This document shows, piece after piece, positions 930 through 60,223 of a stretch of DNA of 64,000 nt. The notes below the pieces were generated by a model, which worked only from the letters and a program-made list of their open reading frames with translations, did no database searches and had not been told where the DNA came from. Every line of letters starts with the position of its first letter. Positions within the stretch are counted from its first letter, which is position 1. The translations under genes were made by a program, and so were the position numbers. Location of the stretch: sequence record OQ378934.1; one strand, 5' to 3'. The stretch is from Escherichia phage LH2.

Positions 930-1178
930 ATGATTAAACAATTACAACACGCTCTTGAACTGCAACGAAACGCATGGAATAATGGTCACGAAAACTATGG
1001 CGCATCTATTGATGTTGAAGCCGAAGCTCTTGAAATCCTGCGTTATTTCAAACATCTGAATCCTGCTCAAACTGCATTAGCCGCTGAGCTTCAGGAAAAA
1101 GATGAACTTAAATATGCTAAGCCTCTGGCTTCTGCCGCACGAAAAGCAGTTCGTCACTTTGTGGTAACACTGAAGTAA
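930..1178 (+). CDS. rIII: rIII-like lysis-inhibition accessory protein, 82 aa
   Basis: 82-aa ORF immediately after gene 31; assignment by size and synteny. Confidence 0.6.
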   Translation: MIKQLQHALELQRNAWNNGHENYGASIDVEAEALEILRYFKHLNPAQTALAAELQEKDELKYAKPLASAARKAVRHFVVTLK

Positions 1179-1534
1179 TTTATTGGAGAGTCACTGCCTT
1201 AGTGTGAAGTTAAAACGAGGAGCCGTCGAACTGTCTGATTAATGATTTGCGAATCATTATAGTTTTAAGACCCCGGCAGTTTTACGGTGTACCTCTTGAA
1301 TGTTATTCTTATAGCGGCAAGTGCATGCTACCCCGAGGTGATGGCTAATCGGGAGTACGCCTCAAGGCCTATATATCCATCAGTATATATCTTATCCTCG
1401 AGAAATCGGACCCGGAACCTTTAAGCTAACGGTGTGCAACAGATAAGAGCTATAAGGTATGATGACGGGTTTATGGTTATCCTGGTCGTTAAATATTCAA
1501 AAACCTATGTTCCCCTTGAGGGCTTGCGCAGGCA
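1179..1534. other. ORF-free, GC-rich block; candidate structured RNA or decayed element
   Basis: Stops in all six frames; local GC about 50 percent versus about 35 percent for flanks; contains palindrome TAATGATTTGCGAATCATTA. Confidence 0.3.
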
Positions 1535-1576
1535 ATGCCAATAAGTCCTGCATTTTCATTTAAAAGAGAATTTATA

Positions 1577-1753
1577 ATGGCAAAACAAGCTAAAGCAAAG
1601 AAAGCAGTTGAAAAGAAAGTTGGTGATTCTAAACGCGCTGGTTACAAGCGTGGGTCGAACTCTCGTATCAATCAAACTGTTGAGAAGATCATGCGCCGAG
1701 CACGTGCGGTTCTTCGAGATGATGCTTCTCGTTTTGGTAAGCAGAAAGCATAA
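1577..1753 (+). CDS. small basic protein, 58 aa from ATG 1577 (72 aa if from ATG 1535)
   Basis: Lys/Arg-rich ORF ending at a strong terminator. Confidence 0.5.
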   Translation: MAKQAKAKKAVEKKVGDSKRAGYKRGSNSRINQTVEKIMRRARAVLRDDASRFGKQKA

Positions 1754-1757
1754 GTTA

Positions 1758-1787
1758 AGGACTCCTTCGGGAGTCCTTTTTTATTTT
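1758..1787 (+). terminator. rho-independent terminator
   Basis: Hairpin AGGACTCCTTCGGGAGTCCT followed by a T-run. Confidence 0.7.
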
Positions 1788-3242: not shown

Positions 3243-3511
3243 TGTTTGTCGTTCACACTATTTATGAAAATGAAGGTAATACTACACGTGATTACGGTCA
3301 CGTAAATCAATTTTTTAGATGCAATCCAGAATTCCGAGCTCAAAAAGACGAACGAATTTTTAAAAAATGTGTAGAGCAAGGTTTCATTTACGTCAAGCAC
3401 TGGATGCAAGGAAATAAAGTTAGAACTACATATCATAAGTCTTTGCCTGAGCTTAATGATGAATTGATTTATAATAGAGCTGTAAATCAAACTCTGAAGG
3501 ATGAACAATGA
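3242..3511 (+). CDS. hypothetical protein, 89 aa
   Basis: ATG ORF overlapping the ligase start by 4 nt; position of T4 30.1. Confidence 0.5.
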   Translation: MFVVHTIYENEGNTTRDYGHVNQFFRCNPEFRAQKDERIFKKCVEQGFIYVKHWMQGNKVRTTYHKSLPELNDELIYNRAVNQTLKDEQ

Positions 3512-4968
3512 TTCTTAAAATTCTGAATGAAATAGCATCTATTGGATCAACTAAGCAGAAGCAAGCAATTCTTGAAAAGAATAAAGATAATGAATTGCTT
3601 AAACGGGTATATCGTCTGACTTATTCTCGTGGGTTACAGTATTATATCAAGAAATGGCCTAAACCTGGTATTGCTACCCAGAGTTTTGGAATGCTGACTA
3701 TTACCGATATGCTTGACTTCATTGAATTCACGTTAGCTACTCGGAAATTGACCGGAAATGCTGCAATTGAGGAATTGACTGGATATATCACCGATGGTAA
3801 AAAGGATGATGTTGAAGTTTTGCGTCGAGTGATGATGCGAGACCTTGAATGCGGTGCTTCAGTATCTATTGCAAACAAAGTTTGGCCAGGTTTAATTCCT
3901 GAACAACCTCAAATGCTGGCAAGTTCTTATGATGAAAAAGGCATTAGTAAGAATATCAAGTTTCCAGCTTTTGCACAGTTAAAAGCAGATGGAGCTCGGT
4001 GTTTTGCTGAAGTCCGAGGTGATGAATTAGATGATGTTCGTCTTTTATCACGAGCTGGTAATGAATATCTAGGATTAGATCTTCTTAAGGAAGAGTTAAT
4101 CAAAATGACTGCTGAAGCCCGCCAGATTCATCCAGAAGGTGTGTTAATTGACGGCGAATTGGTATACCATGAGCAAGTTGAAAAGGAACCAGAAGGCCTA
4201 GATTTTCTTTTTGATGCTCCTGAAATCAGTAAAGCTAAAGAGTTTGCCGAAGTAGCTGAATCTCGTACTGCTTCTAATGGAATCGCCAATAAATCTTTAA
4301 AGGGAACTATTTCAGAAAAAGAAGCCAAATGCATGAAGTTTCAGGTCTGGGATTATGTTCCGTTGGTAGAAATATACGGTCTTCCGGCGTTTCGTTTAAA
4401 ATATGATGTACGTTTTTCTAAACTAGAACAAATGACATCAGGATATAATAAAGTAATTTTAATTGAAAACCAAGTAGTAAATAACCTAGATGAAGCTAAG
4501 GTAATTTATAAAAAATATATTGACCAAGGTCTTGAAGGTATTATTCTCAAAAATACCGATGGATTGTGGGAAAATGCTCGTTCAAAAAATCTCTATAAAT
4601 TTAAAGAAGTAATTGATGTTGATTTAAAAATTGTAGGAATTTATCCTCACCGTAAAGACCCTACTAAAGCAGGTGGATTTATTCTTGAATCAGAGTGTGG
4701 AAAAATTAAAGTAAATGCAGGTTCAGGCTTAAAAGATAAAGCCGGTGTAAAATCACATGAACTTGACCGTACTCGCATTATGGAAAACCAAAATTATTAT
4801 ATTGGAAAAATTCTAGAGTGCGAATGCAACGGCTGGTTAAAATCTGATGGCCGCACTGATTACGTTAAATTATTTCTTCCAATTGCGATTCGTTTACGTG
4901 AAGATAAAACTAAAGCTAATACATTTGAGGATGTATTTGGTGATTTTCATGAGGTAACTGGTCTATGA
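3508..4968 (+). CDS. 30: ATP-dependent DNA ligase gp30
   Basis: 486 aa; active-site lysine motif KADGARC; near-identical to recalled T4 ligase. Confidence 0.95.
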   Translation: MILKILNEIASIGSTKQKQAILEKNKDNELLKRVYRLTYSRGLQYYIKKWPKPGIATQSFGMLTITDMLDFIEFTLATRKLTGNAAIEELTGYITDGKKDDVEVLRRVMMRDLECGASVSIANKVWPGLIPEQPQMLASSYDEKGISKNIKFPAFAQLKADGARCFAEVRGDELDDVRLLSRAGNEYLGLDLLKEELIKMTAEARQIHPEGVLIDGELVYHEQVEKEPEGLDFLFDAPEISKAKEFAEVAESRTASNGIANKSLKGTISEKEAKCMKFQVWDYVPLVEIYGLPAFRLKYDVRFSKLEQMTSGYNKVILIENQVVNNLDEAKVIYKKYIDQGLEGIILKNTDGLWENARSKNLYKFKEVIDVDLKIVGIYPHRKDPTKAGGFILESECGKIKVNAGSGLKDKAGVKSHELDRTRIMENQNYYIGKILECECNGWLKSDGRTDYVKLFLPIAIRLREDKTKANTFEDVFGDFHEVTGL

Positions 4969-57818: not shown

Positions 57819-57891
57819 TGGGAATTAGCCAAGTTGGTAAGGCATAGCACTTTGACTGCTAGATGCAAAGGTTCGAGTCCTTTATTCCCAG
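57819..57891 (+). tRNA. tRNA-Gln (anticodon UUG)
   Basis: Cloverleaf folded by hand: acceptor TGGGAAT/ATTCCCA, anticodon loop CTTTGAC, T-arm AAAGG-TTCGAGT-CCTTT. Confidence 0.85.
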
Positions 57892-57892
57892 C

Positions 57893-57979
57893 GCGAGAAT
57901 GGTCAAATTGGTAAAGGCACAGCACTTAAAATGCTGCGGAATGATTTCCTTGTGGGTTCGAGTCCCACTTCTCGTACCA
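57893..57979 (+). tRNA. tRNA-Leu (anticodon UAA), type II, CCA encoded
   Basis: Acceptor GCGAGAA/TTCTCGT, anticodon loop CTTAAAA, long variable arm, T-arm GGGTTCGAGTCCC. Confidence 0.85.
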
Positions 57980-57985
57980 AAGTTT

Positions 57986-58057
<72 letters not shown>

Positions 58058-58069
58058 AAATTTAATTTA

Positions 58070-58143
58070 CTCCGTGTAGCTCAGTTTGGTAGAGCGTCTG
58101 CTTTGGGAGCAGAATGTCGTAGGTTCAAATCCTGCCACGGAGA
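58070..58143 (+). tRNA. tRNA-Pro (anticodon UGG)
   Basis: Acceptor CTCCGTG/CACGGAG, anticodon loop TTTGGGA, T-loop TTCAAAT. Confidence 0.85.
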
Positions 58144-58145
58144 CT

Positions 58146-58232
58146 GGAGGCGTGGCAGAGTGGTTTAATGCACCGGTCTTGAAAACCGGCAGTCGCTCCG
58201 GCGACTCATAGGTTCAAATCCTATCGCCTCCG
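58146..58232 (+). tRNA. tRNA-Ser (anticodon UGA), type II
   Basis: Acceptor GGAGGCG/CGCCTCC, anticodon loop CTTGAAA, long variable arm. Confidence 0.85.
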
Positions 58233-58239
58233 TAATTTC

Positions 58240-58312
58240 GCTGATTTAGCTCAGTAGGTAGAGCACCTCACTTGTAATGAGGATGTCGGCGGTTCGATTC
58301 CGTCAATCAGCA
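58240..58312 (+). tRNA. tRNA-Thr (anticodon UGU)
   Basis: Acceptor GCTGATT/AATCAGC, anticodon loop CTTGTAA. Confidence 0.85.
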
Positions 58313-58318
58313 TATCAA

Positions 58319-58390
58319 GGCCCTGTAGCTGGAAGGTTCAAGCAAGCGACTCATAATCGCCAGATGGTGGTTCAATTCCACCCAGGGCCA
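58319..58390 (+). tRNA. tRNA-Ile (anticodon CAU, presumably lysidine-modified)
   Basis: Acceptor GGCCCTG/CAGGGCC, anticodon loop CTCATAA; T4 carries an Ile tRNA of this type. Confidence 0.75.
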
Positions 58391-59100: not shown

Positions 59101-59177
<77 letters not shown>

Positions 59178-59179
59178 AA

Positions 59180-59487
59180 CAAGAAACCGGGTCGCTACCG
59201 GTAAGTCGTCGGACTGATGTTCCCTGGAGTATAGTTTCTCCCACAGTTTTACTGTGTTCTGATTCTTTACTATCACAACAGAAACGGCGCACCGAATTAT
59301 CGATTCGAGGAAATATCTTTGCCGTAAGCCGAGTAGCGTTTTTGACGGAACGTTCGGATATGGTCGAGATATGGCCTTTTAAAAATATTGAGTAGCGTCA
59401 ACTGCTTAATAACCGGGTTCAAATCCCGGCGTTTCGTACAAACACTTGCCTTAGCAGGTGGAACCCCGACAAGATTGCCGCAAGGCT
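59180..59487 (+). ncRNA. stable-RNA region (T4 rnaC/rnaD-like), boundaries not resolved
   Basis: About 300 nt ORF-free and GC-rich, directly after tRNA-Arg, ending at a terminator; contains a tRNA-like T-arm CCGGGTTCAAATCCCGG. Confidence 0.4.
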
Positions 59488-59488
59488 T

Positions 59489-59516
59489 AGCCCCACCCGA
59501 AAGGTTGGGGCTTTTT
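59489..59516 (+). terminator. rho-independent terminator, copy 1 of a duplicated terminator
   Basis: Hairpin AGCCCCACCCGAAAGGTTGGGGCT plus TTTTT. Confidence 0.7.
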
Positions 59517-59518
59517 GG

Positions 59519-59526
59519 TATAAATA
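59519..59526 (+). promoter_or_regulatory. late promoter TATAAATA
   Basis: Exact consensus 40 nt upstream of the ORF at 59566. Confidence 0.5.
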
Positions 59527-59565
59527 TAGTAGTATATTAAATCACGAATTAAAACAGGAAATAAG

Positions 59566-60024: not shown

Positions 60025-60031
60025 CATTCTT

Positions 60032-60059
60032 AGCCCCAGCCGAAAGGTTGGGGCTTTTT
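60032..60059 (+). terminator. rho-independent terminator, copy 2 of a duplicated terminator
   Basis: Hairpin AGCCCCAGCCGAAAGGTTGGGGCT plus TTTTT; one mismatch versus copy 1. Confidence 0.7.
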
Positions 60060-60193
60060 GGTATCTAGGCCTTTCTGGATCTCTCTAGGCATCATTTAGT
60101 TTCTACCTTTTATAATATATTATCCTATCCTTTAATTGCCCCTCCCTGCCCTAGAATTCCCTAAAACTTTTTAAAAAATTTTTTCACAAAACT

Positions 60194-60223
60194 GTTTACA
60201 TCCCTGTTCTTCCATGGTACTAT
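60194..60223 (+). promoter_or_regulatory. early promoter (GTTTACA, 17 nt, TACTAT)
   Basis: T4 early promoter consensus upstream of the ORF at 60268. Confidence 0.45.

Follow-up and report, generated by a model that had tools for sequence, protein, structure and literature searches.

A conserved structured RNA in the rIII–30.9 spacer of T4-like phages that is missing from phage T4

The spacer between genes rIII and 30.9 of Escherichia phage LH2 (OQ378934.1), analyzed within a window of 64,000 nucleotides, consists of successive RNA modules that each fold on their own and are transcribed on the plus strand within the message running from rIII to 30.9, and is neither junk nor a decayed gene. One of these modules, a 143-nt element here designated RNA X (1311–1453, plus strand), is a conserved RNA structure under selection on that strand; it represents a well-supported new structured RNA family and is almost certainly functional as a structured RNA. 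X is a self-contained module that changes position relative to the other modules and has entered an unrelated phage, and phages can do without it, as its absence from T4 and most Escherichia isolates shows. T4 possesses every spacer module except the 153-bp block that bears X and, being the reference for the phage group, its lack of the block may explain why X stands unannotated in hundreds of therapeutic and model phages. RNAs that combine a multi-helix junction, a tertiary loop–loop pair and invariant junction bases are often riboswitches, ribozymes or the cores of ribonucleoproteins, and the occurrence of X in strictly lytic phages of Enterobacterales would provide a testable entry point to RNA-level control or counter-defence during infection. 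X is small and modular, and near-isogenic phages occur naturally with and without it, which makes its deletion, transplantation and compensatory mutation straightforward.

The window preserves the T4 gene order cd-31-rIII-30.9…30, with the strand reversed relative to the T4 record, and its nearest database records are Tequatrovirus phages, such as ECP2301 (99.4% across the block by blastn). The locus comprises (i) gene 31 (447–782, from the ORF list); (ii) rIII, encoding the lysis inhibition accessory protein (930–1178, plus strand, stop codon at 1176–1178; an ORF matching phrog_1457 with E = 4.7e-44 and syntenic with T4 rIII); (iii) gene 30.9, encoding a very basic 58-aa protein (1577–1753, plus strand; phrog_1427, E = 2.3e-31, and T4 annotation); and (iv) the DNA ligase gene (3508–4968, from the ORF list). 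The first-pass annotation had singled out an ORF-free block at 1179–1534 between rIII and the next gene; this placement holds, and the true spacer extends to 1576, since 30.9 starts at 1577, as annotated in T4, for a length of 398 bp, the T4 spacer measuring 244 bp. The block contains stop codons in all six frames, as had been noted, with a longest open stretch of 51 codons, and is the longest part of the 64-kb window without any ORF of at least 50 aa, comparable gaps being found only within the tRNA cluster at 57.7–59.6 kb. Its GC content, previously put at about 50%, is 43.8%, against a window mean of 36.2%, and 3.8% of 356-bp windows reach this value. The spacer between gene 31 and rIII (783–929, 147 bp) is the next longest non-tRNA gap at the 50-aa cutoff.

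Scans of 1179–1576 for sigma-70-type promoters and for terminators returned none, and inspection by eye across genera revealed no consistent late (TATAAATA) or MotA-type promoter before X. A T4 late-promoter motif of the same sequence is located at 783–790, at the start of the gene 31–rIII spacer, and an intrinsic terminator identified by a terminator scan (1757–1786, plus strand) closes the rIII–30.9 transcription unit, with an early-type promoter on its 3' side (1808–1836, promoter scan). This arrangement, together with the lack of any promoter or terminator inside the spacer, indicates that X is transcribed within the rIII–30.9 message. Further downstream, the segment 1864–3511 comprises 30.3 (1924–2382, PF08010), a 287-aa ORF and a DUF3045 protein, ahead of the ligase gene, and T4 genes 30.8 to 30.4 are absent from the window between 30.9 and ligase. 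ECP2301, the closest match to the spacer, retains 30.8, followed by three or more additional ORFs, which indicates that the region is recombinant.

The 153-bp block that carries X (1304–1456, plus strand) is delimited by alignments with T4 and phage 107, which match the window almost exactly on either side and have no counterpart of 1304–1456; across the junction, the T4 sequence reads GAATGT/GAATGATGACGG, the stroke marking the site. X itself was defined from an RNAalifold consensus and its covariation, and the corresponding covariance model matches 1309–1455 with 180.7 bits. The fold, all on the plus strand, comprises (i) the closing stem P1 (1311–1315/1449–1453); (ii) P2 (1316–1318/1367–1369), separated by an internal loop from P2a (1327–1336/1349–1360); (iii) P3 (1370–1376/1383–1389); (iv) P4 (1390–1396/1442–1448); (v) P5 (1398–1401/1406–1409), capped by a GAAA loop of the GNRA type, replaced by GUAA in some relatives; and (vi) P6 (1410–1414/1430–1435). 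P1, P2, P3 and P4 abut in a four-way junction with zero unpaired bases, and a three-way junction is also present. In addition, UGAUGG in the P2a loop (1339–1344) pairs with CCAUCA (1377–1382), which constitutes the entire P3 loop, forming a kissing loop. Conservation is highest in unpaired sequence: AAGNGCAU within the internal loop of P2, the loop of P6, and GCAACA at the junction. The most conserved unpaired segment, 1415–1441, spans the P6 loop GAACCUUUAAGCUAA, the P6 3' strand and this junction; GCTAAYGGTGNGCAACAGAT is invariant in 27 of 27 distinct members, the most divergent included. The segment 1415–1441 is a candidate binding or active surface.

The RNAalifold consensus, calculated on 19 sequences, contains 44 pairs, 19 of them changed on both sides; the loop–loop pairing was spotted by eye and then added before pair counting. 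In a MAFFT alignment of 19 sequences, 98.4% of the cells are paired and 22 of the 47 pairs are double-changed, compared with 7.5 ± 1.6 in shuffles and 3–7 in slid controls. A model-based alignment of 27 distinct sequences, which includes the divergent copy of Yersinia phage fHe-Yen9-01 and is fitted to the nested structure of X, displays 99.1% paired cells and 29 of 47 double-changed pairs, with 9.8 ± 1.9 in shuffles and 3–7 in slid controls, the shuffle controls overstating the significance in that the sequences are interrelated, the signal coming from no more than about eight lineages that are clearly distinct. Each of the eight helices shows at least one pair changed on both sides among the 27 sequences; P6, otherwise invariant, replaces A-U by U-A in Cronus and G-C by A-U in fHe-Yen9-01. 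Three of the six kissing-loop pairs are double-changed, with 98.8% of the cells paired, and the variants include UGAUGG/CCAUCA in LH2, CGAUGG/CCAUCG in Klebsiella phages, CUAUGG/CCAUAG in two contigs, and CAAUGA/UCAUUG in Cronus, EcS1 and fHe-Yen9-01. The kissing-loop pairs are not part of the covariance model, and their support is therefore independent.

The paired cells of X contain 43 G:U and no A:C combinations, an asymmetry that assigns the structure to the plus strand and speaks against either a cruciform in the DNA or transcription from the minus strand; the same excess weighs against a DNA-level protein-binding site, one of the explanations offered for the block by the first-pass annotation. 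The structured RNA that it also proposed is strongly supported by comparison, given that eight helices, the kissing loop among them, covary over 27 distinct sequences, and the compensatory changes that it had suggested seeking in related phages are present in the X helices. The two clues that had been advanced, on the other hand, do not carry the case: the palindrome proves to be an apical hairpin confined to certain lineages, and covariation is lacking for the long-range pairing, as described below for the flanking modules. Minimum-free-energy folding, likewise recommended, yields z-scores of −0.4 to −0.6 for X on both strands and for the whole spacer, no better than shuffled sequences, so that thermodynamics alone would not flag the region; folding of the leader of phage PKM.Lu.22.1 and of 1440–1590 was equally uninformative.

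A blastn search of the block against 50,697 phage records found some part of it in 1009, with 179 covering most of it, and the 153-bp block alone occurs in 407 phage records, at 408 places, in several T4-like genera. The carriers include (i) essentially all Klebsiella T4-like phages (161 records); (ii) most Enterobacter, Yersinia and Serratia T4-like phages; (iii) Citrobacter phage Merlin, Erwinia phage Cronus, EcS1 and a Karamvirus; and (iv) only 130 of 580 Escherichia records. In IMG/VR, X is present in 20 of 47 contigs that encode rIII, in each case on the same strand as rIII and just past that gene, and motif scans of that resource gave nothing beyond the same T4-like contigs. Identity to the Klebsiella, Karamvirus and Erwinia versions amounts to 92, 82 and 79%, respectively, for X, to 74, 71 and 67% for rIII, and to 87, 70 and 59% for 30.9. 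X is mostly inherited vertically and is conserved as well as its neighbours or better, so that the simplest history would place it in the ancestor of the phage group, with loss by T4-type lineages. A filters-off search of T4-like loci devoid of X returned only noise below 10 bits, which indicates that X is genuinely absent there and not just diverged. Outside phages, no match was returned by exact and degenerate motif scans of 185,579 species-representative genomes of bacteria and archaea, or by blastn of X against 5,426 E. coli genomes and 72,556 plasmids; a single metagenome scan yielded 14 T4-like copies and two chance matches, with no new context. The 248-kb 'Enterobacter phage SonariX', considered as a second context outside the T4-like phages, was rejected, its locus being an ordinary T4-like cd-31-rIII-30.9. 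The record PP212877.1, 'Aeromonas phage PS49' (L005), is classed in Karamvirus, a genus of Enterobacter phages, and its X and flanks resemble Enterobacter-phage versions; the stated Aeromonas host may deserve checking.

The one unrelated carrier is PKM.Lu.22.1, a 76-kb phage of the Grimontviridae, in which X, at about 85% identity, begins 8 nt after an unrelated 257-aa gene and is followed by two hairpins, a canonical intrinsic terminator and a sigma-factor gene. In the stretch between X and that gene (L008, 1652–1736), the strong terminator, CCCCUCUUCGGAGGGG with a U tract, follows X by about 75 nt and precedes the sigma-factor start by about 30 nt, too little space for a promoter, so that expression of the sigma factor must come by read-through. 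The other Grimontviridae records gave no match to X, which points to a transfer of X alone into PKM.Lu.22.1. Part of the segment L008 1652–1736 gave a second blastn piece against phage vB_EcoM_VR26.

The covariance-model scan proposed by the first-pass annotation for known RNA families and ribozymes gave no Rfam 15 match over X. At gathering thresholds, the 4227 models recognize in the whole window only 8 tRNAs, at 57.8–59.2 kb; over 1311–1453, with relaxed filters and E up to 10, no match was obtained, and 1305–1535 gave only two chance matches of 12–13 bits. Models of self-cleaving ribozymes (hammerhead, hairpin, twister, twister-sister, hatchet, pistol, HDV-like and glmS) found no match at E up to 10, ARAGORN identified no tRNA or tmRNA at 1100–1650, and the X model disclosed no relative or paralogue in the tRNA and stable-RNA region of the window. 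Likenesses to the RNase P 3' region, the B12 box, the 11-nt GAAA receptor and loop B of the hairpin ribozyme, seen by eye, are superficial and were discarded, with no support from models. No description of an RNA between rIII and 30.9 was found in the literature, the T4 omics paper and the RIII paper make no mention of the rIII–30.9 spacer, and a literature search found no expression data for phages that carry X.

It is tentatively proposed that X is an autonomous, trans-acting RNA that binds a partner. X would act as an autonomous binding module, either released from the polycistronic transcript or working inside it, in the manner of the T4 tRNAs and stable RNAs; its invariant unpaired surface would bind a conserved partner of host or phage, a protein or a small molecule; and the benefit would be accessory, for instance in host takeover or counter-defence, and not needed for expression of 30.9. 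The close competitor, which we consider quite possible, is a cis-acting leader, namely a riboswitch-like aptamer, a protein-binding operator or an antitermination RNA, in which folded or bound X decides transcription or translation into 30.9 in T4-like phages, or into the sigma factor in PKM.Lu.22.1. X always lies upstream of, and on the same strand as, a downstream gene, within a transcribed spacer, and its lack of a promoter and a terminator of its own fits a leader equally well. Moreover, a leader would account for the hallmarks of an aptamer displayed by X (a weak covarying P1, a multi-helix junction, a tertiary loop–loop pair and invariant junction nucleotides), for the terminator directly before the next gene in PKM.Lu.22.1, the classic layout of a cis-acting attenuator, and for the covarying hairpin, U-rich tail and putatively sequestered ribosome-binding site just before 30.9 in T4-like phages. 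Nevertheless, the attenuator argument comes from one genome and the two downstream genes are unrelated; in T4-like spacers, the modules between X and the putative platform, a stable pseudoknot among them, differ and reorder from genus to genus, and no conserved pairing alternative to the 3' strand of P1 was seen. What inclines us to the autonomous reading is that (i) T4 keeps modules A, B and C, hence the same platform, and gene 30.9 without X; (ii) the order of X and module B flips, and X lies anywhere from about 87 to 180 nt ahead of the 30.9 start, with differing modules between; (iii) X hugs the upstream stop codon, beginning 5–8 nt past it in several lineages and in PKM.Lu.22.1, and not the downstream start; and (iv) an unrelated phage acquired X by itself, and the genes around it there are unrelated to its usual neighbours. 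The two readings are close, and we favour the autonomous RNA over the leader and over a ribozyme; searches for a bacterial counterpart of X or for target complementarity found none. More speculatively, and with some doubt, X might be the sensing or binding domain of an undescribed RNA class of virulent phages, either a riboswitch aptamer that reads the state of the infected cell or a decoy or sponge against host defence, held in a cassette of about 150 nt that is traded between unrelated phages.

The remaining explanations fit the data less well. A self-cleaving or catalytic RNA, or a processing signal, that cuts the rIII–30.9 transcript and uncouples the stability of its halves is unlikely: the perfect four-way junction, in which neighbouring arms touch, is reminiscent of the natural hairpin and twister-sister ribozymes, the invariant junction nucleotides would fit an active site, and T4-type phages extensively process their polycistronic RNAs, but the likeness is topological only, none of the Rfam 15 ribozyme models matches and no cleavage site can be deduced. 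The first-pass annotation had also raised a decayed mobile element or an intron remnant, and a recently spread passenger of this type with no RNA function (MITE-like, a homing-endonuclease cassette or an intron fragment) would explain the presence/absence polymorphism within one genus, the sharp borders at 1304–1456, the occurrence in an unrelated phage family and the short inverted repeat formed by the ends, that is, P1. It is very improbable, however, given that X occupies 408 places in 407 records, one copy per genome and no dispersed copies, that the T4 empty site shows no target-site duplication, and that the terminal inverted repeat of 5–7 bp covaries as an RNA stem, as do all the internal helices, with G:U but never A:C. 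In addition, its divergence follows that of the neighbouring genes across genera, conservation being equal to or higher than that of the flanking genes in three of the four genera compared (the exception is EcS1), there is no endonuclease signature, and group I and group II intron models over X found no match, rIII and 30.9 being intact here and in T4. Finally, some records annotate short hypothetical proteins over the block and a 45-codon GTG ORF overlaps it in LH2; yet a frameshift-decayed ORF is refuted, and an unannotated small protein gene, or a set of features that arose by chance, is scarcely credible, when every member has stops in all six frames, when members of 144, 147, 148 and 156 nt differ by indels of 1, 3 and 9 nt, not all multiples of three, so that no frame is conserved, and when the variation is concentrated in compensating pairs.

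Comparison with known systems highlights both shared and distinct features. Large riboswitch aptamers resemble X in (i) a size of about 100–180 nt, with a closing P1 and a junction core containing invariant unpaired nucleotides; (ii) a loop–loop pair of neighbouring arms, here of 6 bp and Watson–Crick, with an internal loop in one arm that could kink; and (iii) placement ahead of a gene, within a transcribed spacer. The lysine riboswitch displays an L2–L3 kissing loop, the cobalamin riboswitch a four-way junction and an L5–L13 kissing loop, and SAM-I a four-way junction with a pseudoknot. The structure of X is conserved and supported by covariation, as expected of an aptamer. As to an expression platform, a terminator follows X in PKM.Lu.22.1, and in the T4-like spacers no conserved platform was seen beside P1. 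Unlike those aptamers, X matches no covariance model and precedes genes that give no metabolic clue. The likeness is architectural and does not constitute a test.

The pRNA of the phi29 family carries complementary, covarying loops that pair between molecules and build a ring (PMC4201828). Like X, it is phage-encoded, of similar size and equipped with two complementary covarying loops, and the kissing pairs of X, by analogy, could equally be intermolecular. Unlike pRNA, X is dispensable in many close relatives, and the two RNAs share no similarity in sequence or model; T4-type packaging motors are not known to require RNA. ROOL and GOLLD are complex phage-carried RNAs whose loop–loop contacts can be intermolecular (bioRxiv 10.1101/2024.12.08.627333). 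They share with X the covariation support, the phage-borne location, the loop–loop contacts and their orphan status, but they measure 500–800 nt and are included in Rfam, whereas X comprises 143 nt, matches neither, and is confined to virulent phages, mostly of Enterobacterales hosts.

The T4 tRNAs and the stable RNAs C and D are non-coding RNAs made from polycistronic transcripts. They resemble X in being non-coding and locally GC-richer than the genome but occupy another locus (57.7–59.6 kb in the window), and we know of no function for RNAs C and D either. In PeSL elements, an early promoter (TTTACW-N17-TAYWAT for the T4 group) comes after a stem-loop that resembles a terminator (PMC4122927); these elements mediate modular shuffling in T4-type phages (PMC2839356, PMC4122927). 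As with the spacer modules, which are reshuffled between genera, they are small non-coding units tied to insertion, deletion and reshuffling; nevertheless, X has neither a terminator-like stem-loop nor an early promoter, no promoter- or terminator-like site being present in 1179–1576, and the PeSL-like element of the window lies at 1757–1836, after 30.9.

Upstream of X, module A (1179–1303, plus strand) is a hairpin-rich leader common to T4 and nearly identical in T4 and phage 107. Its putative structure comprises a small hairpin (about 1192–1205, plus strand) and a long imperfect stem, CGAGGAG..CCGU/ACGG..CCUCUUG, which appears in the minimum-free-energy fold and which, in the T4-type version, is capped by a hairpin with an 8-bp stem and a TGCG loop (1240–1259, plus strand). 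This hairpin is the element that had been described as a perfect palindrome at 1239–1258: the 8-bp inverted repeat TAATGATT/AATCATTA exists, one position further on, and its perfection is broken by the non-palindromic loop. Present in T4, it is absent from relatives of the L062 type, L062 keeping the basal stem without the apical part, and a G-to-A change in T4 converts a U-G pair of the module into U-A.

Downstream of X in LH2, module B (1457–1510, plus strand) is a conserved H-type pseudoknot composed of GUAUGAUG, stem 1, a loop, CGUUAAAUAU.CAAAAC and stem 2, and is a second uncatalogued conserved element, common to T4, with no Rfam match and no description found. It occurs in nearly every T4-like rIII–30.9 spacer examined, preceding X in Klebsiella-type phages and following it in the others; in T4 (NC_000866) it corresponds to the complement of about 130607–130660, and it is thus open to study there immediately. 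Its ten pairs show 86% paired cells, against 24–51% in slid controls, in an alignment that is imperfect for the subtype of the window itself.

A small hairpin, CCC-CUUGA-GGG followed by CUUG (1512–1522, plus strand), contains CCTTGAGG; it is also present in T4, is placed upstream of X in EcS1 and PS49, and preserves its stem across genera while the loop varies. The first-pass annotation had proposed that CCTTGAGG (1514) pairs over a long range with CCTCAAGG (1360): both octamers are located where it placed them, but the pairing shows no covariation and was set aside. T4 keeps the CCTTGAGG hairpin yet has no CCTCAAGG partner, the hairpin loop differs among relatives (UUGA, UUCGA, UUA, UAGA, UCGA and UUUGA) while CCUCAAGG is constant, and other relatives display CCUCAUGG or CCUAUGG with no corresponding change. 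Module C (1528–1576, plus strand) comprises the hairpin GCAGG/CCUGC (1528–1551), a U-rich tract and the ribosome-binding region of 30.9. Its stem covaries between lineages, as GCAGG/CCUGC, GGGAGC/GCUCCC, GAGAG/CUCUC and GGGAAC/GUUCC, and the ribosome-binding region can pair with the U-rich tract, which suggests, on sequence grounds, that the Shine–Dalgarno sequence may be sequestered.

At the position of X, phages such as vB_Eco_Solly carry a recurrent small cassette (..AUGCGUCAGCAAAAGGUUAGCUGU..) that looks like a hairpin module and is found at L004 1540–1590, in the L046, L050 and L064 spacers and in EcS1 (L007, about 1690–1730); some records annotate a hypothetical protein over it. Elsewhere in the window, the segment 57722–59565 holds 8 tRNA genes, at 57819–58390 and 59101–59174, followed by ORF-free, GC-richer DNA (59175–59565) that probably contains the T4 stable RNAs C and D, and a further ORF-free gap of 189 bp is located at 60025–60213.
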